Positions 5,796 through 63,464 of a stretch of 64,000 nt of DNA are shown here, piece by piece (within the stretch, counting starts at the first letter, position 1; each line of letters begins with the position of its first letter). This stretch comes from Spirochaetota bacterium (GTDB lineage Bacteria > Spirochaetota > UBA4802 > JAGODF01). A program made the position numbers and the translations under genes. The stretch covers positions 26,886 through 90,885 of the forward strand of contig JARKUF010000016.1 of NCBI GenBank assembly GCA_029974015.1. The letters run 5' to 3'. The notes under the pieces were generated by a model. The model was not told the origin of the DNA and did not search any database. It was given only the letters and a program-made list of their open reading frames with translations.

Positions 5796-6737
5796 TTAGA
5801 GGTATTTGTTCACCCGCCGAAGAAAACATGCGTCGAAATTTTCGCACCTGGCGCAGTATTCGTCGTCTTCATTAAAATCCGCTTCTTCACAGATGCCATG
5901 TATATTGCCCTCTGTCATGATGCGGATGTAGTTTATGTACTGCACCTCATCGTCGTTAAGTGCGTCGGCGCCGTGCCTTTCAAGTTTTTTAAGTATTGCG
6001 ATCTTGTATTCCGTGTTCTTGTCGAAGTGTGTATTAGATTTTTCCTGGAGGGTCCTTTTGTGTTCATCGAGGTTTTTCATCAGCCTGTTTTGCATAATCT
6101 TTGTCTTGAACGAAATTGTATGTTTTCGGAAAATCAGGAAATAAACGAGGCCGAAAAAAAGCCCTCCTAAGTGTCCCAGATGGGAAATATTGCTAACGCC
6201 GCCCTGGAGCTCCAGGAAAAGCTCAAGGAGACCGTAAAGGACCACAAGATACTTTGCCTTAATGGGGAGGAAGAAAAACAGCAGAAGCTCCGCATTGGGA
6301 TACAATATGCCGAAGGCGAGCAGAAGGCCGAATACGGCCCCGGATGCGCCAATGGTTGGGATAAGCAAAAAAGGACTTTCCGGCCCATGGATTATCAGGC
6401 TGAAAACAAAGATGGTGATGCCGGCGCCTATGCCGGTGAAAAAATAGTAAAAGAGAAAGCGCCTGCTACCCCATTCCTGTTCGATGGGGATGCCGAAAAT
6501 AAGGACGGCATACATATTAAAAAGGATATGGGGAAAGTTCGCATGAAGGAACATATAGGACGCAAACTGCCACAGATAATGCTTTTCGATAATGGTATAA
6601 GGTTTTAAAGCGAAGTATTCAAGTATTATATCCATGCTTCCCATTGTTTGGAAGATGAAGATGATGATATTTACGACTATCAGTTTCATTACAAGCCCCT
6701 GATAGCCCCGCTGGTTTTCCATTTTCATTTTAGGCAA
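5796..6737 (-). CDS. Rhomboid-family intramembrane serine protease with a Cys-containing C-terminal cytoplasmic tail
   Basis: Rhomboid catalytic motifs GASGAVFGLL (Ser) and HLGHLGGL (His) in a polytopic membrane core. About 110 aa of tail carries CEEADF...EYCARCENFDAC. Confidence 0.75.
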   Translation of the reverse strand: MPKMKMENQRGYQGLVMKLIVVNIIIFIFQTMGSMDIILEYFALKPYTIIEKHYLWQFASYMFLHANFPHILFNMYAVLIFGIPIEQEWGSRRFLFYYFFTGIGAGITIFVFSLIIHGPESPFLLIPTIGASGAVFGLLLAFGILYPNAELLLFFFLPIKAKYLVVLYGLLELFLELQGGVSNISHLGHLGGLFFGLVYFLIFRKHTISFKTKIMQNRLMKNLDEHKRTLQEKSNTHFDKNTEYKIAILKKLERHGADALNDDEVQYINYIRIMTEGNIHGICEEADFNEDDEYCARCENFDACFLRRVNKYL

Positions 6738-6903
6738 CCTCTAATTAGGTTTTCCCGCCAGCCTTAGGCGGGCGGGAAAATTCAATACCGGCAACCTGTA
6801 ATTATGAGGTTTTTCCGCCCGTCTTCGGGGGGGGACCTCAGTGCATAGTGTGCCGGTAGTTGTAATTTATGGGAACCTTAAAATAATATTTTTTGATGTT
6901 CCC
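6733..6903 (+). repeat. MITE-like modular repeat, copy A (composite, with the left inverted repeat and hairpin modules duplicated in tandem)
   Basis: GGCAACCTCTAAT + hairpin AGGTTTTCCCGCCAGCCTTAGGCGGGCGGGAAAA, then a second GGCAACCTGTAAT + hairpin, then TGCCGGTAGTTGTAATTTATGGGAACC and the right end ...GATGTTCCC. Flanked by TTTA at 6729-6732 and 6904-6907. Confidence 0.7.
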
Positions 6904-15070: not shown

Positions 15071-15126
15071 CTCTGGACTTATGTTTTCATGCCGTCTAAG
15101 GCGGGCGGGAAAACATAAGTCCAGAG
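15071..15126. repeat. Hairpin-module variant of the repeat family, with alternative 18-bp perfect inverted arms
   Basis: CTCTGGACTTATGTTTTC...GGCGGGCGGGAAAACATAAGTCCAGAG. It shares the GCGGGCGGGAAAA core with the other copies. Confidence 0.55.
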
Positions 15127-16586: not shown

Positions 16587-16632
16587 AATTATGTTTTCCC
16601 GCCCGCCTTAGGAGGGAGTGAAAACATAAATT
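16587..16632. repeat. Hairpin-only copy of the repeat family
   Basis: AATTATGTTTTCCCGCCCGCCTTAGGAGGGAGTGAAAACATAAATT. The ATGTTTTC/GAAAACAT arms are the same as in the copy at 15071. Confidence 0.5.
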
Positions 16633-20274: not shown

Positions 20275-22152
20275 ATGATGGCAGACCTGAAAAAACTATT
20301 GGATGCATACGAACTGGACGGAAAATCAATCTGCGCGATCGAATTACAAACCTACCGGAAGTACTGGGACCGCACGTCTTTTCTGACAAAAGAAAAGGGC
20401 GGTCTTCCGACTAGAAATTTTATCCCGGTGAAATCGAGCGAATTTATTGAACAACAGCTTTTAGTCGCCGCAGGCATGCTCGAAATAGGCGTTAGGAAAG
20501 GCGATTTTGTCGCCGTTTTTTCGCCGAACTCGCTCCGCCATGCCGTGGAAATCTACGCGATTATGTCGATCGGTGCGGTGTACGTTCCGATATATCCTTC
20601 TCTCCATGAAGACCTGGCGTGGAATCTCCTGACCCATTCCGGCGCCCGTGTAGTTTTTACCGGTTCTCTTGGGCAGTATCAGAAGGCGCTCCCCATGCTT
20701 AACCGCGTGAAAACTCCACTACGCAAACTTATTGTGGACTTTCCGGTGAATACGGAAGATCAAAATGTTCTCACCTACGAGGTGTTGATGCGGATGGGAG
20801 AGACTTCGAACAGAATTGAAGAAGTGCTAAAATCTGTTCAGAGTTTGAAGGAGAACGATTTGGCTGCCCTGGTGTACACGGCCGGAACCATGGGAATCGC
20901 AAAGGCGGTCATGTTGACTCACGGAAACTTCCTGGCCCAATCGCCTCTGGAGGACCTTTTCGACATAACCGCCGACGATACAAGACAGTCCCATCTTCCT
21001 TTTAGCCATGTCTTTGGGCTCTCTTCGGACCTCTTCGCTTCGGCGCTAATCGGTTCGAAAATGGCCATATCCCACACTTTCGACACTGAGGAAATTGTGA
21101 GCGATATATCTGAAATCAAACCCACGGTCATGTGTTCCGTCCCGAGAATGTACGAGAAACTGTACGTACATGTCCTCCAGGTGATTGAACAGTACGGCTC
21201 GTTTAAAAAGCTGCGCTACACCTTTGCCCTTAACGTAGCGAAAGAGTATTTTATGAGGAAGGTTTTCGGAAAACGAATACCTTTGTTTCTCCGCGCTATG
21301 AAGCTCCTTATGGCCCCCTTCTATTCGAAGGTGAGAAAAATCATCAGCATGGACAAGATGCGGATACTATTCTCTGGCGGAGGGCCGCTTTCCGTGGAGG
21401 TTGCTTATTTTTTCGGGGGCATAGGTCTGGAGATTCTTGAGGGATACGGCCTGACCGAAACCTCCCCGGTAATTAACGTCAATCTTCCGGGGAAAAGCAA
21501 GCCAGGCACCGTCGGCCCCCCCCTAAAGGGGGCCGAGGAAAAGATATCGGACGAGGGGGAAATACTTGTTAAAGGGCCCATGGTATGCCGGGGATACTAC
21601 AATTACTCGGGGGAGGACGCCAACGACTGTTTTACCAGCGACGGATTTTTCCGCACCGGCGATGTGGGGGTTTTCACCTCCGATGGTAATCTTATGATCA
21701 CGGGCCGACTGAAGGACCTCATCATTACCTCGGGAGGGAAGAACATAGCCCCCCTCCCCATTGAATCTTTGTTTACCGCGGATGAATTCATAGAAAACTT
21801 CTGCATTGTTGGAGACAAACGGAAATATCTTTCCGCCCTCGTGGTGCCAAATTTCGACAGACTTCGAGAATACGCCAGACAAAAAAACATAGAGTACGAA
21901 ACGAACGAGGACCTCGTTACCAACATTGAAATAATTGCTTTTTATCGAAAACGCATCGAGGACATCTCGGATACCCTGGCCAGGTTCGAACAGATAAAGA
22001 AATTCACCCTTCTGCCCCATAGTTTCTCAGTCGAAACGGGAGAGTTGACCCTGACCTACAAGTTCAAAAGAAGCGTTATTCAGGACAAGTACAAGGATCT
22101 GATTGATAAAATGTATCCCGAAAGCAGTCTTATGGCAACCCCAAAAAATTAG
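20275..22152 (+). CDS. Long-chain acyl-CoA synthetase (AMP-binding enzyme family)
   Basis: AMP-binding box LVYTAGTMGIAKAVMLTHGN, and GYGLTETS, TGDVG and GRLKDLIITSGGKNI motifs. Confidence 0.8.
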   Translation: MMADLKKLLDAYELDGKSICAIELQTYRKYWDRTSFLTKEKGGLPTRNFIPVKSSEFIEQQLLVAAGMLEIGVRKGDFVAVFSPNSLRHAVEIYAIMSIGAVYVPIYPSLHEDLAWNLLTHSGARVVFTGSLGQYQKALPMLNRVKTPLRKLIVDFPVNTEDQNVLTYEVLMRMGETSNRIEEVLKSVQSLKENDLAALVYTAGTMGIAKAVMLTHGNFLAQSPLEDLFDITADDTRQSHLPFSHVFGLSSDLFASALIGSKMAISHTFDTEEIVSDISEIKPTVMCSVPRMYEKLYVHVLQVIEQYGSFKKLRYTFALNVAKEYFMRKVFGKRIPLFLRAMKLLMAPFYSKVRKIISMDKMRILFSGGGPLSVEVAYFFGGIGLEILEGYGLTETSPVINVNLPGKSKPGTVGPPLKGAEEKISDEGEILVKGPMVCRGYYNYSGEDANDCFTSDGFFRTGDVGVFTSDGNLMITGRLKDLIITSGGKNIAPLPIESLFTADEFIENFCIVGDKRKYLSALVVPNFDRLREYARQKNIEYETNEDLVTNIEIIAFYRKRIEDISDTLARFEQIKKFTLLPHSFSVETGELTLTYKFKRSVIQDKYKDLIDKMYPESSLMATPKN

Positions 22153-22235
22153 GTTTTCCCGCCCCCCAAAGGCGGGTGGAAAAACCTAATTGCCGGGTTT
22201 GCCTGAGTAATAATTTATGCGAAACTAAAAAACTC
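22147..22235 (+). repeat. Truncated repeat copy (hairpin plus degenerate right modules) that overlaps the stop codon of the acyl-CoA synthetase gene
   Basis: AATTAGGTTTTCCCGCCCCCCAAAGGCGGGTGGAAAAACCTAATT, followed by a TGCC...TAATTTATGCGAAAC module. The TAG stop (22150-22152) lies inside the left arm. Confidence 0.55.
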
Positions 22236-22274
22236 AATTATGTGAGCTTCTCTTATAAATTAGTAGAGGTTTTC

Positions 22275-23848: not shown

Positions 23849-23968
23849 GGCAACCTCTAATTACCAGGTTTACCCGCCAGCCGGAGGCGGGCGGAAAAAA
23901 CCAATGTTGAGTTTGCCAGCAGTAACAATTTTTGGGAATCTTAAAAATTAAATTTTTTTGAGGTTCCC
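23849..23968 (+). repeat. MITE-like modular repeat, copy B (full length)
   Basis: GGCAACCTCTAATTACC + hairpin AGGTTTACCCGCCAGCCGGAGGCGGGCGGAAAAAACC + TTGCCAGCAGTAACAATTTTTGGGAATC + TTAAAAATTAAATTTTTTTGAGGTTCCC. CTCA abuts both ends (23845-23848 and 23969-23972). Confidence 0.7.
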
Positions 23969-29408: not shown

Positions 29409-29472
29409 GAAAAGCTGTAATAATCACCCGGGATCACAAAAATTGTTGCAGTTGGTAACGTTTATTTATTAT

Positions 29473-29577
29473 GTCAACCACCTCCGCCTGGCGGAAAACT
29501 TTAGTGCTGAGACTGCGAGTAGTTACAATTTATGGGAATCTTGAAAATTCAATTTTTAGAGGTTCCCAGCTATAGGG
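29473..29577 (+). repeat. MITE-like repeat, copy C (degenerate left half, intact right modules)
   Basis: GTCAACCACCTCCGCCTGGCGGAAAAC... then CTGCGAGTAGTTACAATTTATGGGAATC + TTGAAAATTCAATTTTTAGAGGTTCCC. Confidence 0.55.
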
Positions 29578-29698
29578 TATATACTGAAATACAGATATTC
29601 AAAAGTTGCAACTATTTTTGATATATCAGTGCCAAATTTTTTGAAATAAATTCATCGGGATGGAATGGGGAATGGTTTCCCGGACCACAATATAATTG

Positions 29699-29729
29699 TT
29701 GACGTAATATCTTTACATAAGGTATACTA
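29699..29729 (+). promoter_or_regulatory. Putative sigma-70 promoter reading toward bactofilin, through repeat copy D
   Basis: TTGACG-N19-TATACT (an 18-nt spacer if -35 is read as TGACGT), about 190 nt upstream of the bactofilin ATG. The intergenic element at 29787-29907 would be part of the 5' UTR. Confidence 0.3.
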
Positions 29730-29786
29730 TGATAAATTGTGCCCTATGTGTTTCGCGGCACGGTTGTTCAGGGTTATGTGGGTAAT

Positions 29787-29907
29787 GGCAACCTCTAATA
29801 TTTAGATACTCCCGCCCGCCGAAGTCGGTCGGGAATATCTAACTGCTGAATTTGCCGGTAGGTACATTCTTTGGGAAACTTAAAAATTTTAATTTTTAGA
29901 GGTTCCC
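29787..29907 (+). repeat. MITE-like modular repeat, copy D (full length), located in the bactofilin 5' leader
   Basis: GGCAACCTCTAATATTTAG + hairpin ATACTCCCGCCCGCCGAAGTCGGTCGGGAATAT + TGCCGGTAGGTACATTCTTTGGGAAAC + TTAAAAATTTTAATTTTTAGAGGTTCCC. It ends 15 nt before the bactofilin ATG. Confidence 0.7.
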
Positions 29908-31924: not shown

Positions 31925-32046
31925 GGCAACCTCTAATATTTACGATTATCCGCCCGCCCAAGGCTGACGGAAAATGTTAAATGCTGAGTTTGTCAGTAGT
32001 TGCGATTTATGGGGACCTAAAAAATTTAATTTTTTGAGGTTTCTCC
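31925..32046 (+). repeat. MITE-like modular repeat, copy E
   Basis: GGCAACCTCTAATATTTACG + ATTATCCGCCCGCCCAAGGCTGACGGAAAATG + TTTGTCAGTAGTTGCGATTTATGGGGACC + TAAAAAATTTAATTTTTTGAGGTTTCTCC. A hairpin fragment GGATGCCTTCGGCGGGAAAGG lies just upstream at 31891-31920. Confidence 0.65.
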
Positions 32047-35605: not shown

Positions 35606-36544
35606 GTGCGGATCACTGCGAACGTCGTGCAATTTTCGGAAAACGCATATGCCAAGGTCAATCTGCACCTTGAAATCCTCAACAGAAGACACGACGGGTA
35701 TCATAACATTTTCAGCCTCATGATATCAGTGGAGGAGAGTGATCTTTTAAAACTGGAAACTCTGGACGTGTACGACCGAGAAGGCCCAATAGAAGTCGAA
35801 ATAATTTCAGACGGGGGCAAGCACGAGTGGCTCCTGGCGACGATTCCAGTTTGGGACAACTTGATAACCCGGGCGGCAAGGGCGTATTTTAACAAGGCCG
35901 GAAAGTCGTGCAAAATTTCTCTTCACGTCGAGAAAAATATTCCCGCCGGGGGCGGCCTTGGCGGAGGCAGCAGCGATGCCGCAGCGATGCTCAGGCTCCT
36001 CAACTCTCAGCTCGATTATTACAGCAACGATGAGCTTATGAGACTGGCCGGAACTATCGGCGCCGATGTGCCGTACTGCCTGAGTGGAGGTTGCGCGATC
36101 TGCGAGGGCACGGGGAGCGAGGTTACGGTTCTCGACGGGGCCCTTGACTACTGGCTTCTCATTGCCAACAATAACGTGGCCGTCGATACCGGCGCCGCAT
36201 ACAGAGCTCTTGGCAGGAGCACCGAACACGACTCTGAGGCCGCGATGGCCGACCGGGCTGGTATAGACCAAAAGAAAATGCTTTTCGAGAAAGGTGTGGG
36301 CGCCAACGATCTCGGTGTTTTCAGGGCTGTCCTTAAAAATGATTTTGAACCTGTCATTTTTAAGGACCATCCTGAACTCGAAATGATAAAAAATTCGATG
36401 ATTGAGTACGGCGCCGATTACGCTGCGATGACCGGATCAGGCTCGAGCATAATCGGCGTTTTCAGGGATTACGATGTCGTTCGAGGCGCGGAAGCGAAGC
36501 TTGCGCCGTCCGCGGCGCAGCTTATTCTTACTCGGATAATTTAA
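35606..36544 (+). CDS. ispE: 4-diphosphocytidyl-2-C-methyl-D-erythritol kinase
   Basis: GHMP-kinase motif PAGGGLGGGSSDAAAML and the N-terminal KVNLHLEIL segment typical of IspE. Confidence 0.8.
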   Translation: MRITANVVQFSENAYAKVNLHLEILNRRHDGYHNIFSLMISVEESDLLKLETLDVYDREGPIEVEIISDGGKHEWLLATIPVWDNLITRAARAYFNKAGKSCKISLHVEKNIPAGGGLGGGSSDAAAMLRLLNSQLDYYSNDELMRLAGTIGADVPYCLSGGCAICEGTGSEVTVLDGALDYWLLIANNNVAVDTGAAYRALGRSTEHDSEAAMADRAGIDQKKMLFEKGVGANDLGVFRAVLKNDFEPVIFKDHPELEMIKNSMIEYGADYAAMTGSGSSIIGVFRDYDVVRGAEAKLAPSAAQLILTRII

Positions 36545-36664
36545 GGCAATCTCTAATAATTAGGTTTTTTCGTCCGCCGAAGCCGGGAGGAAAAACTTAA
36601 GCCCTGAGTATGCCAGCAGTTACAATTCATGAGAACTTCAAAAAATTATTTTTTAGAGGTTCCC
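36545..36664 (+). repeat. MITE-like modular repeat, copy F (full length), inserted between the ispE stop codon and tRNA-Gln
   Basis: GGCAATCTCTAATAATT + AGGTTTTTTCGTCCGCCGAAGCCGGGAGGAAAAACTT + ...TATGCCAGCAGTTACAATTCATGAGAAC + TTCAAAAAATTATTTTTTAGAGGTTCCC. TTAA abuts both ends (36541-36544, which includes the ispE TAA stop, and 36665-36668). Confidence 0.7.
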
Positions 36665-36687
36665 TTAAATAATTTAAAGGAGAATAT

Positions 36688-36759
36688 TGAGGCGTGGCCA
36701 AGTGGTAAGGCACCGGGTTTTGGTCCCGGGATTCCAAGGTTCGAATCCTTGCGCCTCAG
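36688..36759 (+). tRNA. tRNA-Gln (anticodon UUG)
   Basis: Manual cloverleaf fold. Acceptor stem TGAGGCG/CGCCTCA; D-arm GCC-AAGTGGTAAG-GC; anticodon stem CCGGG/CCCGG with loop TTTTGGT (anticodon TTG); T-arm CAAGG-TTCGAAT-CCTTG; discriminator G. CCA is not encoded. Closely parallels E. coli tRNA-Gln. Confidence 0.75.
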
Positions 36760-36771
36760 ATTCATGGTACC

Positions 36772-47495: not shown

Positions 47496-47590
47496 GGCAA
47501 CCTCTAATTATGATTTTCCGCCCGCCTTTGGCGGCCGGAAAAAGCTAATTATTCGAGTTTGCCAAATCTTAGTTTTTAAGGCTTCACTGA
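47496..47590 (+). repeat. MITE-like repeat, copy G (left inverted repeat and hairpin intact, right modules degenerate)
   Basis: GGCAACCTCTAATTATG + ATTTTCCGCCCGCCTTTGGCGGCCGGAAAAAGCT + ...GAGTTTGCCAAATCTTAGTTTTTAAGGCTTCAC. Confidence 0.6.
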
Positions 47591-52463: not shown

Positions 52464-53304
52464 AGCCGGTAACTCCGTCTAACGCGCAGCGGTGTCCTTG
52501 TTCCATCGAAGTTTTCTCCTCGTCGCGGTACGAGCCGAGCCTCGTCAAGAGTTCATTGAAATCGACTTTGTGCCCGTCGAATTCGGGGCCGTCAACGCAT
52601 GTGAACTTTTTTTCGCCGCCTACGGTCACGCGGCATCCGCCGCACATCCCTGTCCCGTCAACCATGATGGAGTTGAGGCTCACCAGTGTTGGAATCGCCT
52701 TTTCGCGAGTGAGGTCGGAGACCGCTTTCATCATGGGGAGCGGTCCAATGGCGACGACGAGGTCCACTTTTTCGCGGGCAATGATTTCACCAAGGGCTTC
52801 GGTGACGAAGGCTTTGCGTCCATAGGACCCATCGTCGGTGCAGACTATTGTTTCGTCGCCGGTCTCCCTCATCTCTTTTTCGAGGGCGATGAGGTCCTTT
52901 GTCCTTGCGCCGATGATGTTTATCACCCTGTTGCCTTCAGCTTTCATTGCCGTGGCGATGGGGTAAATGGGCGCGACGCCGATGCCGCCTCCGACGCACA
53001 CCACAGTCCCGTATTTTTTGATTTCAGTGGGATGTCCCAGGGGCCCGGCGATGTCGAGTATGATGTCGCCTGCTTTCAGTTTGGAGAGGTCCGTTGTGGT
53101 TTTGCCCACAACCTGGTACATGAGGGTAATGGTGCCGGATTCACGGTCCGAATCCGCTATGGTAAGGGGTATGCGCTCTCCTTTTTCACCGATCCTGAGT
53201 ATGATGAACTGGCCAGCCTTCCTGTGGGCTGCCACATACTCGGCCTTTACTATCATTTTCCCCGTATTGGGGCTTATCATTTCGTTGGAAACTATTGTAT
53301 GCAT
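52453..53304 (-). CDS. PyrK-like ferredoxin-NAD(P)+ reductase subunit (NfnA/SudB-type, FAD + [2Fe-2S])
   Basis: FNR-like RxxS flavin and GGGIGVAP NAD-binding motifs. A C-terminal [2Fe-2S] Cys cluster (GTGMCGGCRV...FTCVDGP). Confidence 0.7.
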   Translation of the reverse strand: MHTIVSNEMISPNTGKMIVKAEYVAAHRKAGQFIILRIGEKGERIPLTIADSDRESGTITLMYQVVGKTTTDLSKLKAGDIILDIAGPLGHPTEIKKYGTVVCVGGGIGVAPIYPIATAMKAEGNRVINIIGARTKDLIALEKEMRETGDETIVCTDDGSYGRKAFVTEALGEIIAREKVDLVVAIGPLPMMKAVSDLTREKAIPTLVSLNSIMVDGTGMCGGCRVTVGGEKKFTCVDGPEFDGHKVDFNELLTRLGSYRDEEKTSMEQGHRCALDGVTGYGK

Positions 53305-53350
53305 TGGCCGTTCCGGTTGAATATATTAGCGCTAAAGCGTACAAGTTAAG

Positions 53351-53434
53351 GGCAACCTCCAATAATCAGGTTTTTCCTCCCGCCTTCCGCGGTCGTAAAA
53401 ACCTGACTGATTAATTTAATTTTTAGAGGTTGCC
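53351..53434 (+). repeat. MITE-like repeat, copy H1 (short form: left inverted repeat, hairpin, right inverted repeat, no middle module), with perfect terminal inverted repeats
   Basis: GGCAACCTCCAATAATC + AGGTTTTTCCTCCCGCCTTCCGCGGTCGTAAAAACCT + GACTGATTAATTTAATTTTTAGAGGTTGCC. TTAA at 53346-53349 (one extra G before the repeat) and at 53435-53438. Confidence 0.7.
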
Positions 53435-53499
53435 TTAATATTAAACAGCGACAGTTTGGTACATTGACCCGGCACTGCAAGAACAATTCTCTGTCAAAC

Positions 53500-53570
53500 T
53501 TATGGGGACCTTTTACTCAGGTTTTTCAGCCCGCCGGCGTCGGGCGGGAAAACCTGTGTGATTAATTTGC
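53500..53570 (+). repeat. MITE-like repeat, copy H2 (rearranged/truncated derivative adjacent to H1)
   Basis: ...TATGGGGACC-TTTTACTC-AGGTTTTTCAGCCCGCCGGCGTCGGGCGGGAAAACCT-GTGTGATTAATTTGCC. Confidence 0.55.
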
Positions 53571-53631
53571 CACGAAAGGCCTTCGCCAATTTTGCTAAAA
53601 GAAATGCAAAAATAGGCGAGTAAGCTCCAAT

Positions 53632-54687
53632 TCACACGGATGCATTCCGTATATATGATTGTGCTTCTTCAATAGCATTATAATCTGTCAAAACAAGGGG
53701 GTCGATGCCGTTTCTCATCAGGCGCACTCTGGTTTCCGCAATGTGGGATTGTCTTGCATGGCATTTTCCCTCATCGAACATAATTATCGTCTCAATCCCA
53801 TAGGAGCCTGCAAGCCGGTAGAGAAGTTCAAATCTGTCTCGTGGGCTTCGGAGGCAGGGACAGAGGGGCCTGAAGGAAAATGCGCGGATAATTTCCTCAT
53901 GGAGTTCGGCGGATTCCGTGTTGTGGGAGAGGTCAAAGCTCCTTCGGCCTCCGCAGATATCGTCCTCAAGTATGTAAAATCCAAGAGCCTCCAGGGCATC
54001 GAGGATATCGTGTCCGCTGGCGCAGCAACCCGAGATCATGGTGGGAAGTCCAAAGGGAGGCCTGTCAGTCGGGGCGTTGAGTAAGGCTTCTAATATTCCG
54101 GTGAGGAATGGGTAAACCACTTCGAATGGGAGAGAGAGGCCGCCTTGAAATATAGTAAATAATTGGGATTGGGCCATTGATTTAGGCTTTTCTGCCCGCA
54201 ATGCCGCAATTCCTCGAATAACACGCCGCAGGGTATTGTACATTTCGGCGGCTTTACGAAGTGCTGTAGGGTCCGGAATTGACGAGATGGAGGCATTTTT
54301 TACGTTTTTCAGAAAGGATGCGAGTGTGGACTTCCATGCACCGATTGATGGTTCACCGGGTTCCGGTGGTATGTTTTCAACTGGCAAAGTTTTCACGCCG
54401 GGAAGGCAGTCTTTGAAATGGCGACACTGGGCAGGGAAGGCATATACATCGGCTGTATTTTCAATTTGGGAAGGGAAACCGGGGGAGCAATCTTTATTCA
54501 AAAAGTTCGGTACAATTAGAGGGGTGATTCCGTGGGCGGAAAGTATTTCAAAAGGAAGAAAATCACAGGGAAACGCTATAATTGTTCCGGAAAATTCTTG
54601 TTTGTTTTCAAGAGGCCCTTCCCAGAAGGAGTGGATTGCATTTGTGATTTCTCCGACGAGGCAAGATATGGTAAGCTCTGTTTCCAT
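53632..54687 (-). CDS. 2-hydroxyacyl-CoA dehydratase / benzoyl-CoA reductase subunit-like protein (HGD-D family)
   Basis: Length and spaced Cys residues (SGCCASGHD, DICGGRRS, CPC) are consistent with the HGD-D/BcrB/BadE fold. No partner activase gene is seen nearby. Confidence 0.4.
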   Translation of the reverse strand: METELTISCLVGEITNAIHSFWEGPLENKQEFSGTIIAFPCDFLPFEILSAHGITPLIVPNFLNKDCSPGFPSQIENTADVYAFPAQCRHFKDCLPGVKTLPVENIPPEPGEPSIGAWKSTLASFLKNVKNASISSIPDPTALRKAAEMYNTLRRVIRGIAALRAEKPKSMAQSQLFTIFQGGLSLPFEVVYPFLTGILEALLNAPTDRPPFGLPTMISGCCASGHDILDALEALGFYILEDDICGGRRSFDLSHNTESAELHEEIIRAFSFRPLCPCLRSPRDRFELLYRLAGSYGIETIIMFDEGKCHARQSHIAETRVRLMRNGIDPLVLTDYNAIEEAQSYIRNASV

Positions 54688-54751
54688 TGTTTTTCGTTTG
54701 GGGTTTCAGGTATTTAATCCTTGAGACATCATAATGTTGGCTTTGAATTGT

Positions 54752-54871
54752 GGCAACCTCTAATAATTAGGTTTTCCCGCCCGCCTTCGGCGGGCGGGAA
54801 AACCTAAGTCCTGAGTATGCCAGTAGTTACAATTTATGGGAACCTCAAAAATTTAATTTTTAGAGGTCCCC
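54752..54871 (+). repeat. MITE-like modular repeat, copy I (best-preserved full-length copy)
   Basis: GGCAACCTCTAATAATT + AGGTTTTCCCGCCCGCCTTCGGCGGGCGGGAAAACCT + AAGTCCTGAGTATGCCAGTAGTTACAATTTATGGGAACC + TCAAAAATTTAATTTTTAGAGGTCCCC. TTGT abuts both ends (54748-54751 and 54872-54875). Confidence 0.75.
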
Positions 54872-54943
54872 TTGTTCAAATAAAAAAAATGAGAGGTGGG
54901 GAACCTCTCAAGAAAGGGTAGTGTTTATGAAAGCGATAAATTT

Positions 54944-55780
54944 TTAATCGAGATAATCCTGTAGATGGGCGTACTTTTGTTTGATTTTGTTCATGGCCCT
55001 TGATTCAATCTGGCGCACAGTTTCAGCGGAGATGCCGAACTCATTGCCCACTTCTTTAAGAGTGACGGGCCTGTCGTCATCAAAACCGAATCTCATTCGA
55101 AGAATGCGTTTTTCGTTGTCCATAAGGGAATTCAAAGCTTCGTCGAGGGTTTTTTTGAGCTCGTCCCTGCCGAGGTTAAAATCAGGGGATTTTGTCGTTT
55201 CGTCCTCAACCACTTCCATAAGATTGAAATCGCCATCGTTAAGAGGGTATTCGAGGGACACGGTGGGCTGGAAGACTTCCTGTATTTCAAGGACTTCCTT
55301 TACATCGATTCCTAAGAGTTCGGCGATTTCATAGGTATTTGGTTCTCTTCCATTTTCGCTGATTAGTATCTCCCGGGCCTTTGTAATATTTTTAAAGAGA
55401 TCCCCTTTTCTTATAGGGATGCGTATGGTCCTGCTCCTCTTGGCTATGAAGCGCGTAATGTAATGCTTGATCCAATACGAGGCGTAGGTGGAAAACCTGC
55501 ATCCCATGCTGTAATCGAATTTTTCAGCGGCGCGTATGAGCCCGAGATTGCCTTCCTGGATTAGATCAATGATGGAGGGTTCAATGGAAGTATAGTTTTT
55601 CGCTATTTTTACGACAAGCCTGAGGTTTGAATTGATAAGCTTTTCTTTTGCGTTTTCGTCTCCCTCACATTTTGACTTTGCAAGGGTAGATTCCTCTTCA
55701 TGGGTTAACAGATTAATCTTGTTTATAGATGAAAAATAATTGGAGAGGCACATTTCATCGCCAGAGAAATAACTTTTCAT
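54944..55780 (-). CDS. Sigma-70 family RNA polymerase sigma factor, group 1/2-like (RpoS/RpoD-type) lacking region 1.1
   Basis: Start at MKSYFSG (an AAGGA RBS upstream). Region 2 DLIQEGNLGLIRAAEKFDYSMGCRFSTYASYWIKHYITR...TIRIP. Region 4 TLKEVGNEFGISAETVRQIESRAMNKI. Confidence 0.75.
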   Translation of the reverse strand: MKSYFSGDEMCLSNYFSSINKINLLTHEEESTLAKSKCEGDENAKEKLINSNLRLVVKIAKNYTSIEPSIIDLIQEGNLGLIRAAEKFDYSMGCRFSTYASYWIKHYITRFIAKRSRTIRIPIRKGDLFKNITKAREILISENGREPNTYEIAELLGIDVKEVLEIQEVFQPTVSLEYPLNDGDFNLMEVVEDETTKSPDFNLGRDELKKTLDEALNSLMDNEKRILRMRFGFDDDRPVTLKEVGNEFGISAETVRQIESRAMNKIKQKYAHLQDYLD

Positions 55781-56084
55781 GGTTTTTATCCTTTTCTTCA
55801 GGCTATCATAATATAAAGCAAGAACCATGCCATGTATTGGCATATTATAATATTTTGCATTATTTTTATAAAATTATTAAATGCTGGATGGGGAGGGAAA
55901 TCGCATTATTTGTAGGAGGGATTGGTACAAAAAAACAAGTATTACATTACTTGATTATACAATTTTTAGTATAACTGAGTAGAATATTTACGTATTGCTT
56001 ATAATTGTCAAGGTTCTGCCAATTACACTTGGAATAATATCTAAACCTTAGCAAATGGTTTTGGGACGAATTGTATAGCGATAA

Positions 56085-56135
56085 GTGTATATTTATTACA
56101 CATGTCAATTATTGATATGTGTATAATATTTACAC
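56085..56135. promoter_or_regulatory. Two copies of a GTGTA-N7-TACAC palindrome (candidate operator pair) inside a ~370-bp AT-rich region upstream of the sigma factor gene
   Basis: GTGTATATTTATTACAC (56085-56101) and GTGTATAATATTTACAC (56119-56135), centres 34 bp apart. Confidence 0.3.
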
Positions 56136-56220
56136 GATTGAGAAGATATTACTAGCGCAATTCGTTATCAAGAGGGGAGGATAAAAGAAAACCATTGCAG
56201 GGTTGAAGTTTATTAGAATA

Positions 56221-56335
56221 GGCGCCATATTTATTAGGTTTTCCCGCCTTTTCAGAGGGTGGGAAAACCCAAGTACCGCGTTTGCCAGAAGTTCCAATTT
56301 ATTGGAATCTTAATAATCTAATTCTTTGAGGTTCC
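56221..56335 (+). repeat. MITE-like repeat, copy J (degenerate)
   Basis: GGCGCCATATTTATT + AGGTTTTCCCGCCTTTTCAGAGGGTGGGAAAACCC + ...TTTGCCAGAAGTTCCAATTTATTGGAATC + TTAATAATCTAATTCTTTGAGGTTCC. Confidence 0.5.
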
Positions 56336-56367
56336 AAAAAGCTGTTTAATGGAAAAATTTTACCTGG

Positions 56368-56571
56368 TTACTTAATATTGTACTTTTTCTTAAACTTATC
56401 CACGCGGCCAGCGCTGTCGACTATCTTCTGCTTCTTTGTATAGAATGGGTGGCAGTTGGAGCAAATCTCAACCCTCATGTTTGGCACGGTAGATCGGGTT
56501 TTGATCTCGTTCCCGCATGCGCATTTTATTACTGTTTCCTCGTAGTTGGGGTGTATTCCTTTCTTCATCAC
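56368..56571 (-). CDS. rpmE: 50S ribosomal protein L31
   Basis: [47 protein letters not shown]: the Zn-ribbon CxxC...CxxC form of L31. Confidence 0.9.
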
Positions 56572-56581
56572 GATACCTCGT

Positions 56582-57961
56582 TTAAGTATTCATGGCCTTG
56601 AAAAACGCCTTGTTGTTCTTGGTTGCCCGCATCTTCTCCGTTAGAAGCTCCATTGCTTCCAGCGGACTCATTGCTGATATGACTTTTCTAAGTATCCATA
56701 TTTTATTAAGTTCATCCCCGTCAAGCAGAAGTTCTTCTTTTCTTGTGCCGGATTTGTTAATATCGATTGCCGGGAAAATGCGCCTTTCCACAAGTTTTCT
56801 GTCGAGGTGAAGCTCGCAGTTGCCCGTTCCTTTAAATTCCTCGAAAATGACCTCGTCCATTCGGCTTCCAGTGTCAATTAGCGCTGTGGAGAGTATGGTA
56901 AGGCTGCCTCCTTCCTCAATGTTGCGGGCGGCGCCGAAAAACCTTTTCGGCTTGTGCAGTGCATTGGAGTCTACGCCGCCGGAAAGGATTTTGCCGCTCG
57001 TGGGAACCACCTGGTTATAGGCCCGGGCAAGGCGGGTGATGGAGTCGAGTAGAATAACGACGTCCCTTTTATGCTCCACGAGACGTTTTGCCTTTTCAAG
57101 GACCATCTCCGCCACCTGGACGTGACGGGAAGCAGGTTCGTCGAAGGTGGACGATATTACTTCTCCCCGAACGGAGCGGGACATGTCGGTAACCTCCTCC
57201 GGGCGTTCGTCAATAAGGAGTACTATAAGGACCACCTCGGGGTGGTTCGTCGTTATCGAGTTGGCTATCTTCTGAAGCAGAATAGTTTTTCCGGTCCGGG
57301 GAGGGGCGACTATGAGGGCGCGTTGGCCCTTTCCAATGGGTGTGACGATGTTCATAATTCTCATCTCGATGTTTTCCGTTTCAGTCTCGAGATTAATGCG
57401 TTCCATCGGGTATAATGGCGTCAGGTTATCGAAGAAAAACCGCCTCTGGAGGTTTTCAGGATTTTCATAGTTTACGGCTTCAACCCGCAGAAGGGCGTAG
57501 AAGCGTTCGTTGTCCTTTGGGGGGCGGATCTGGCCGGTGACTGTATCACCTGTTCTAAGGCCGAAAAGGCGGATTTGCGAGGGGGATACATAGATATCGT
57601 CCGGGCCGGGAAGATAATTGTAGTTGGGTGATCTGAGAAAGCCGTAGCCGTCGTTCAGTATTTCAAGCACTCCGCTTGAGAAAATCAGGCCGTTACGCTC
57701 GGTCTGGGCCTTGAGTATCTCAAAAATTAGGTCCTGTTTCTTTAGGCCGGACATGCCTTCAAGGGACATCCCCTTGGTAATGGAAAAAAGCTCGTTTATG
57801 GTCTTGGTTTTTAATTCCGCCAGGTCGAGCCTGTTTTCGTTTGGGGCCATTTTTTTCTGCCCATTGCCGTTTGGAGTAGGCTGGGCGGGGGGCGCCGGTG
57901 ATTCGTTCTCGCCGTTCTTGGATTTAGCGCCCTGCCTCGGGGTTTCAGATAACCTTGCCAT
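56582..57961 (-). CDS. rho: Transcription termination factor Rho
   Basis: N-terminal RNA-binding OB domain, Walker [17 protein letters not shown]- and R-loops, and a C-terminal ...[30 protein letters not shown]. Confidence 0.95.
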
Positions 57962-63297: not shown

Positions 63298-63347
63298 ATC
63301 CCGCGCCATGGCCGAGTATGCGCAATATATTTTCTTTAATTTCAAGC

Positions 63348-63464
63348 GGCCTATAAAAATTTGGTTTTCCCGCCCGCCTTCGGCGTACTGGAAAACTAAA
63401 TTGCAGGGTCTGCCAGTAGTTACAATTTATGGGAACCATTAAAATTTAATTTTAAGAGGTTCCC
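63348..63464 (+). repeat. MITE-like repeat, copy K (degenerate left inverted repeat, intact middle and right modules) between rimP and nusA
   Basis: GGCCTATAAAAAT + TTGGTTTTCCCGCCCGCCTTCGGCGTACTGGAAAACTAAA + ...TCTGCCAGTAGTTACAATTTATGGGAACC + ATTAAAATTTAATTTTAAGAGGTTCCC. Confidence 0.6.

Follow-up and report, generated by a model that had tools for sequence, protein, structure and literature searches.

The best explanation of the repeats as a whole, and one that we hold to be very likely, is a family of non-coding MITEs that carry terminal inverted repeats (TIRs), make a 4-bp target-site duplication (TSD), and are mobilized in trans. The repeats were followed through the window, by which we mean the whole 64-kb stretch of DNA that was analyzed. 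A sequence-only reading of the window had already described a dense family of MITE/BOX-like repeats, and this view is supported by features that it had not seen, namely exact 4-bp TSDs and empty orthologous sites in four relatives. The copies are small, multiple, and non-coding, they are bounded by TIRs and flanked by a duplication of fixed length, and they are polymorphic for presence and absence, as MITEs are. Their size and TIRs agree with those of prokaryotic MITEs, which measure about 50–800 bp and have TIRs of at least 10–15 bp.

Copies of the element in the window

A full copy consists of the modules L, H, M, and R, in this order. The 16-mer of the H arm, GCGGGCGGGAAAACCT, matched the 64-kb window 24 times with at most 3 mismatches, compared with 0.81 matches expected from shuffles, and the L 13-mer matched 15 times with at most 2 mismatches (1.44 expected). 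A repeat finder placed the copies into families with 6–14 members. Both strands of the window were searched with an nhmmer profile built from seven copies. The search revealed 10 full-length copies of ~120 bp, all on the plus strand, and 5–6 partial copies (at 6733, 47496, 53351, 53508, 15071, and 16587). An 11th full copy lies 4.3 kb upstream of the window (locus L036), on the same strand. The local density of the family amounts to approximately one copy per 4–6 kb, which would extrapolate to several hundred copies genome-wide. The copies are listed below with refined element boundaries, which lie 0–2 nt inside the raw nhmmer match coordinates; L′ and R3′ are motifs described in the next section.

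6733–6903, plus strand: composite copy, an L+H unit (6733–6789) fused to a full L-H-M-R unit (6790–6903); flanks TTTA/TTTA; syntenic site empty in the relatives L031, L033, L039, and L041
15071–15126, no strand assigned: hairpin-only relic in the form of a nearly perfect palindrome of 56 nt, which consists of the H 3′ arm plus AAGTCCAGAG with its exact complement; missing from four relatives
16587–16631, no strand assigned: hairpin-only (H) copy, ‘TTATG’ subfamily
22134–22252, plus strand: full copy; TSD TTAT/TTAT; the copy contributes six terminal codons plus the stop to an AMP-binding gene
23849–23968, plus strand: full copy; TSD CTCA/CTCA; start of a SPOR gene 25 nt downstream; absent in the relatives
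29454–29567, plus strand: full length, but L and H have decayed; flanks AGTT/AGCT
29787–29907, plus strand: full copy; flanks TAAT/TATT; start of a bactofilin gene 16 nt downstream
31925–32044, plus strand: full copy with holB on one side and the PSP1 gene on the other; TSD decayed
36545–36664, plus strand: full copy; TSD TTAA/TTAA, with the stop codon of ispE inside the left one; followed after 23 nt by tRNA-Gln
47496–47585, plus strand: degenerate short copy, L-H-L′ and an R3′-like end; directly after the terminator of the H+-PPase gene
53351–53434, plus strand: short form of 83 bp composed of TIR, H, and TIR; TIRs perfect, GGCAACCTC / GAGGTTGCC; TTAA on either side
53508–53572, plus strand: left-half-only copy with degenerate L, H, and L′
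54752–54871, plus strand: full copy nearest to the consensus (95%); perfect hairpins; TSD TTGT/TTGT; two assemblies break inside it
56221–56336, plus strand: full copy with 75% identity to the consensus; flanks AATA/AAAA; situated between two minus-strand genes, rpmE and one for a sigma factor
63345–63464, plus strand: full copy between rimP and nusA; TSD TTCA/TTCA; nusA start 30 nt downstream

All 15 loci named in the sequence-only reading carry the repeat, and the element at 54752–54871 reads as first described. Three copies begin slightly earlier than given, at 22134 instead of 22147, at 29454 instead of 29473, and at 63345 instead of 63348. The copy placed at 29473 had been taken for an M+R-only unit, which it is not, as it spans the full length with a decayed L and H. 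The statement that the repeats are always intergenic is nearly right; copy 22134, however, covers the final codons of gene 20275–22152, and the 4-bp flanking duplicate of copy 36545 reaches into ispE. The modular variants that had been noted are real and comprise left halves, the 83-bp short form, a duplicated L+H, and, in other genomes, M+R-only units.

The copies are 75–95% identical to the consensus. The palindrome at 15071–15126 looks as though hairpin-templated repair had ‘perfected’ a half-element. At 29454–29907, two equally oriented copies are ~310–330 bp apart, and the same arrangement occurs in an unrelated metagenome contig with 54% GC (L012, 1878–2311, and L026, 4864–5299). The sequences between the paired copies of the window and of the metagenome contig have no similarity.

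Anatomy and folding of the element

Aligned copies delimit the full element exactly, from GGCAACC to GGTTCCC over ~120 bp, with variants of 83 bp and ~70 bp. Its TIRs are 12–13 bp long (GGCAACCTCTAA / TTAGAGGTTCCC). That L and R are terminal inverted repeats holds for the consensus, in which GGCAACCTCTAAT and the reverse complement of TTTAGAGGTTCCC are identical at 11 of 13 positions, and copy 53351 has a perfect TIR pair of 9–12 bp. The element contains, however, two further TIR-like motifs inside, which makes four copies of one motif per element instead of two. The motifs and the linker between the two palindromes are as follows.

L, GGCAACCTCTAA, forward: left terminus
L′, GAGTTTGCC, reverse and degenerate: completes the left palindrome of ~70 nt, which encloses the GC-rich hairpin H
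Linker, AGTAGTTACAATTTAT, 16 nt: joins the left and right palindromes
R5′, GGGAACCTT, forward: partner of the right end in the AT-looped hairpin R
R3′, TTAGAGGTTCCC, reverse: right terminus

The left half, from L through H to the start of M, thus forms a palindrome of ~70 nt, in which GGCA..CTC pairs with GAG..TGCC just after H. H had been described as a 10-bp hairpin, which applies to its GC core; the stem extends up to 19 bp in the best copy. R is itself a hairpin, as proposed, with R5′ pairing with the right end across an AT loop. In terms of the four motifs, the short form at 53351 is TIR-H-TIR (83 bp), and the copies at 47496, 53508, 16587, and 15071 are left-half units. The complete element folds into two strong hairpins both as single-stranded DNA (−37.6 kcal/mol, z = −9.6) and as RNA (−61.7 kcal/mol, z = −9.3).

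Hypervariability is restricted to the 3–4 nt loop of hairpin H. This loop exists in two versions that mirror each other, TTCG versus GAAG/CGAA (for example, at 54786–54789 and 36579–36582), and this pattern in the sequence suggests that the center of the palindrome may invert.

The element has no coding capacity, as stop codons occur in all frames apart from a short read-out ORF. A peptide-coding reading of M-R was rejected, for only a few copies possess the ATG, most having TTTGCC instead; a peptide search with the product of the M-R read-out frame gave no match. On both strands, T's stand before H and AAAACC after it. A role of H as an intrinsic (Rho-independent) terminator was dismissed, as neither strand has a downstream U-tract, and a terminator scan of 53300–56700 called neither H nor R. 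A sigma-70 promoter inside M was likewise rejected for want of a consistent hexamer pair.

Target-site duplications and empty sites

A perfect 4-bp direct repeat lies directly outside the TIRs in 9 of 15 independent copies from the window and other genomes (binomial P = 5 × 10−11). The duplicated sequences are TTTA, TTAT, CTCA, TTAA, TTGT, and TTCA in the window and TTTA, ATAA, and AAAA in the other genomes. Three further copies show a single-base difference between their 4-bp flanks. In the controls, no match was obtained at length 5 or at shifts of 1–7 nt, flanks that were not partners agreed in 2.9% of cases, and a 2-bp (TA-type) duplication was found in 1 of 15 copies. The six copies without a perfect TSD are also the most diverged ones, which fits a loss of the duplication by decay. 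The exact 4-bp TSDs tell that the copies arrived by transposition.

With the conserved flagellin gene (flaB region), we retrieved the syntenic 20-kb region from four relatives, the related Spirochaetota L031, L033, L039, and L041 with GC contents of 43–58%. Gene order is conserved in this region. The source genome carries five repeat loci there, and each of the four relatives carries none of the five. In L033 and L041, the empty site where the AMP-binding gene ends matches the window after deletion of the element and one copy of TTAT, which allows an exact reconstruction of the site. The insertions built up in the source lineage after its split from the sampled relatives, and the copies then decayed roughly neutrally.

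Distribution and assembly breaks

One pattern from module M, used as the query, retrieved two family-bearing contigs of Spirochaetes bacterium ADurb.BinA120 as well as about 20 metagenome contigs, whose GC contents range from 31 to 55%. The loci in the other genomes have nothing in common with the window save the element itself, and synteny is absent. The sequence-only reading had named a family of only local copies as the outcome that would speak against it; the matches in ADurb.BinA120 and the metagenomes lie outside the locus. Its occurrence on contigs of 31–55% GC suggests that the element has spread horizontally, along with a transposase, among bacteria of digesters. One of these contigs, Ga0208460_10007020 with 37% GC (L017, 2263–4431), bears two oppositely oriented copies, one full and one M+R-only, surrounded by small ORFs that resemble toxin–antitoxin pairs; short tandem repeats (AAGTCT and GATGAAA units) precede the M+R copy.

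The statement that the element matches no named family held in every collection searched. Viral contigs and phage and plasmid collections contained no match to it. Rfam at gathering thresholds over the whole window returned tRNA-Gln (36687–36760) as the sole match, and a permissive Rfam scan of one copy gave generic hairpins of at most 24 bits versus cut-offs of 45–150. A full-text literature search for the TIR sequences yielded unrelated primers only.

Two independent assemblies break within copy 54752. Contig JAPXOM010000014.1 (GCA_033811455.1) ends at window position 54761 and the Logan contig SRR21487926_948019 at 54838. Such breaks are expected, because a high-copy repeat fragments short-read assemblies. 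The family therefore needs masking and annotation in this poorly known Spirochaetota lineage of anaerobic digesters, as it breaks assemblies and alters the C-terminus of at least one protein.

Host genes next to the copies

Copy 22134 provides the gene for the AMP-binding enzyme (20275–22152) with six new last codons and a stop codon (window 22132–22152). The C-terminus changes from ..L-I-N-stop to ..L-M-A-T-P-K-N-stop; the relatives end in ..E-S-S-I-L*. Seven copies are located 16–45 nt upstream of a start codon or a tRNA in sense orientation, several of them inside operons. The element thereby occupies the leader of about seven genes or operons, including rimP-nusA, holB-PSP1-metG, and a tRNA. 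The putative effects on the host would thus comprise new C-terminal codons with a stop in one gene, hairpins within the 5′-UTR or operon of about seven transcripts, and outward-facing −35-like and Shine–Dalgarno-like motifs at the element ends.

Several individual sites deserve mention. As tRNA-Gln (36687–36760) begins 23 nt after copy 36545, the region upstream of the tRNA now consists of MITE sequence (window 36541–36760). The predicted start codon of a rhomboid gene on the minus strand (6728) is 4 nt from the left end of a MITE (window 6726–6745), and the TIR places a Shine–Dalgarno-like GAGG on the minus strand 9 nt before this ATG. The L end of copy 54752 and its flank make up a promoter-like TTGCCA-17 nt-TATGAT on the minus strand (window 54728–54756), the sole such site found, which faces a 2-hydroxyglutaryl-CoA dehydratase-like gene (53632–54687). 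The apparent intrinsic terminator of the sigma-factor gene (window 54890–54910, minus strand, followed by T8) includes GGGGAACCTCTC, located 20 nt from copy 54752, of which 11 of 12 positions agree with the MITE terminal repeat.

Uniform orientation

The claim that all copies share one orientation proved correct for the 10 full copies of the window, for 11 of 11 when the upstream copy is included, and also for the partial copies that bear a TIR. The two-sided sign test gives a value of about 0.001. Copies 6733, 54752, and 56221 sit among minus-strand genes, and seven others lie 16–45 nt upstream of plus-strand starts. Because the copies ignore the strand of the local genes, their uniform orientation is not due to transcription. 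An asymmetric target motif was also rejected as the cause, for the TSDs are T-rich in the window and A-rich elsewhere, which makes the polarity inconsistent. The GC skew stays positive over the whole window, and the syntenic regions of the relatives show the same sign, so that all copies share one orientation relative to the presumed direction of replication.

At short metagenome loci, the GC skew relative to copy orientation was positive in four cases, negative in one, and mixed in one. On the low-GC metagenome contig, the full copy and the M+R copy are oppositely oriented 1.3 kb apart; thus, the orientation rule is not absolute across hosts. Orientation biases linked to replication are known for several IS families, mostly in Firmicutes, with the strongest in the IS200/IS605 families, and the same survey records no such bias in Spirochaeta (PMC3971601). 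Our literature search found no report of a replication-linked orientation bias for a MITE.

It is possible, although we consider it rather doubtful, that the direction of replication sets the insertion orientation of this MITE, one way per replichore and the opposite way on the other. If so, a DDE transposase would assemble asymmetrically and integrate at the fork, or the element would bear a selected strand-polar signal. In an otherwise ordinary family, only the uniform orientation could bring new insight. Should it hold genome-wide, the family would offer a simple natural system for the coupling of DDE transposition to replication, which is unreported in the phylum.

Mechanism and alternative explanations

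We infer that the copies are mobilized in trans by a DDE transposase that makes 4-bp staggered cuts. In such a mechanism, a DDE-type cut-and-paste (or copy-paste) transposase from a full-length IS elsewhere, which would share the same ends, would bind the TIRs and insert the element at A/T-rich intergenic sites, the staggered cut giving rise to the 4-bp TSD. The shorter forms (TIR-H-TIR, left half, and M+R) may have arisen by internal deletion or represent sub-units that retained a TIR pair, and the internal TIR-like motifs could serve as additional binding sites or be remnants of sub-units that became fused. Inverted TIR pairs 0.7–2.5 kb apart were sought at more than 40 loci, and the genes of the window as well as the ORFs beside copies elsewhere were compared with Pfam. 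No partner IS or transposase with matching ends GGSAACCTCTAA...TTAGAGGTTSCC was found in the window, in 8.4 kb upstream, or beside the copies elsewhere, and the window contains no paralogs. A uniform orientation of 11 of 11 copies is not expected of a cut-and-paste element with symmetric TIRs.

That orientation would follow naturally, one way per replichore, if the repeats were REP/REPIN-like or IS200/IS605-derived (PATE) elements, moved as single-stranded DNA through their hairpins at the fork by an HUH (Y1) transposase. The copies do lie uniformly on the strand of positive GC skew, and IS200/IS605 elements are those with the strongest replication-linked bias (PMC3971601). The two strong hairpins, with a DNA-fold z of −9.6, are consistent with this route. 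So is the conserved linker, which has GTAG. This tetranucleotide is typical of REPs. To our knowledge, however, IS200/IS605 and REP/RAYT elements make neither TSDs nor TIRs. The exact 4-bp TSDs and true TIRs observed here largely refute such an identity; moreover, the left flanks vary, without a constant tetra- or pentanucleotide as the target, and recur on the right, and no RAYT or TnpA gene and no Y1 domain was found among the annotated genes in the ~74 kb of the source genome examined. We consequently rate an HUH origin as exceedingly unlikely. Almost as little speaks for a structured RNA gene or a cis-regulatory RNA family (sRNA, UTR element, mRNA stabilizer, or attenuator) kept by selection. 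In its favor, the RNA fold is very stable (z = −9.3), and seven sense copies lie 16–45 nt before a start codon or tRNA, several in operons. Double changes were observed at 11 pairs versus 5.0 in shuffles, and some copies (e.g., copy 29787) have compensatory changes in H. Controls with a slid register, however, gave similar counts of double changes, and among 14 copies the paired cells were standard in 83.9% versus 81.7% in column shuffles, with 16% of the pair cells broken. Some selection for pairing in H may exist. The match of the modules to the consensus is 77–89% at a mean pairwise identity of 70%, so the decay is even across modules, which together with the weak covariation is more in keeping with a selfish element than with an RNA under selection. 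Three copies run antisense to the genes around them, four relatives have the orthologous genes without the element, Rfam gave no match above threshold, H has no downstream U-tract on either strand, and the TSDs reveal arrival by transposition. An RNA family is thus highly unlikely.

A MITE could, finally, have been partly domesticated, with outward promoters or ribosome-binding sites, hairpins that protect operon mRNA, or a strand-polar signal for replication or segregation. Such a signal would explain the orientation of 11 of 11 copies, regardless of gene strand, by selection. The TTGCCA-17-TATGAT site formed by the L end upstream of gene 53632–54687, the GAGG that the reverse complement of the TIR places before the rhomboid ATG, and the stop codon that one copy lends to one gene point in the same direction. 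Each of these effects, however, is confined to a single copy. The even decay across the element and the two opposite copies 1.3 kb apart on the low-GC contig also argue against domestication, and no polar motif was identified, which leaves this possibility very unlikely.

Comparison with known systems

The likeness to BOX, Correia, and RUP elements that had been pointed out is valid as an analogy but not as membership, for Correia and RUP are flanked by TA and the family described here by a 4-bp duplication. Correia elements (CREE) of Neisseria are ~100–155 bp long, have 26-bp TIRs, duplicate TA, and form co-transcribed hairpins, and their ends can create promoters. Both they and the present family are small, non-coding, TIR-bounded MITEs that are densely spread in intergenic DNA, have internal-deletion variants, and possess promoter-capable ends. 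In contrast to the 26-bp TIRs and TA of Correia elements, however, the TIRs here are 12–13 bp long with an exact 4-bp TSD of variable sequence; the two share no sequence similarity and belong to different phyla. RUP and BOX of Streptococcus pneumoniae are likewise small, modular, hairpin-forming intergenic repeats of variable module content. RUP is a TIR-bounded MITE that duplicates TA and is mobilized in trans by an IS630-type transposase, and BOX is defined by the sequence modules boxA, boxB, and boxC. Neither is known to share sequence or TSD length with the present family, whose modules are repeated TIR-like motifs and a GC hairpin, and the resemblance to BOX is limited to modularity.

Among DDE elements, IS of the IS5 group and IS701 make 4-bp duplications and have GG ends, and the IS5 target is YTAR. 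The family shares with them the 4-bp TSD, the GG ends, and A/T-rich targets, although its TSDs (TTAA, TTAT, TTGT, TTCA, CTCA, TTTA, ATAA, and AAAA) are looser than YTAR. By analogy, these features would be compatible with an IS5-group or IS701-like partner. REP/BIME/REPIN repeats and the PATEs of IS200/IS605 also are GC-rich hairpins repeated in intergenic DNA, and an orientation bias relative to replication is typical of single-stranded DNA transposons. They are, however, without TIRs or TSDs, both of which are present here.

A genome cluster of Spirochaetes, mainly Leptospira, Sediminispirochaeta, and Treponema, contains on average ~145 MITEs per genome at low coding density (PMC11602168). 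Thus, MITE-rich spirochetes were already known. The family described here, compared with those MITEs by description, comes from an uncultured Spirochaetota lineage of anaerobic digesters. We conclude that it is a previously unnamed family, which works like MITEs of the Correia/RUP type and is not a member of them.
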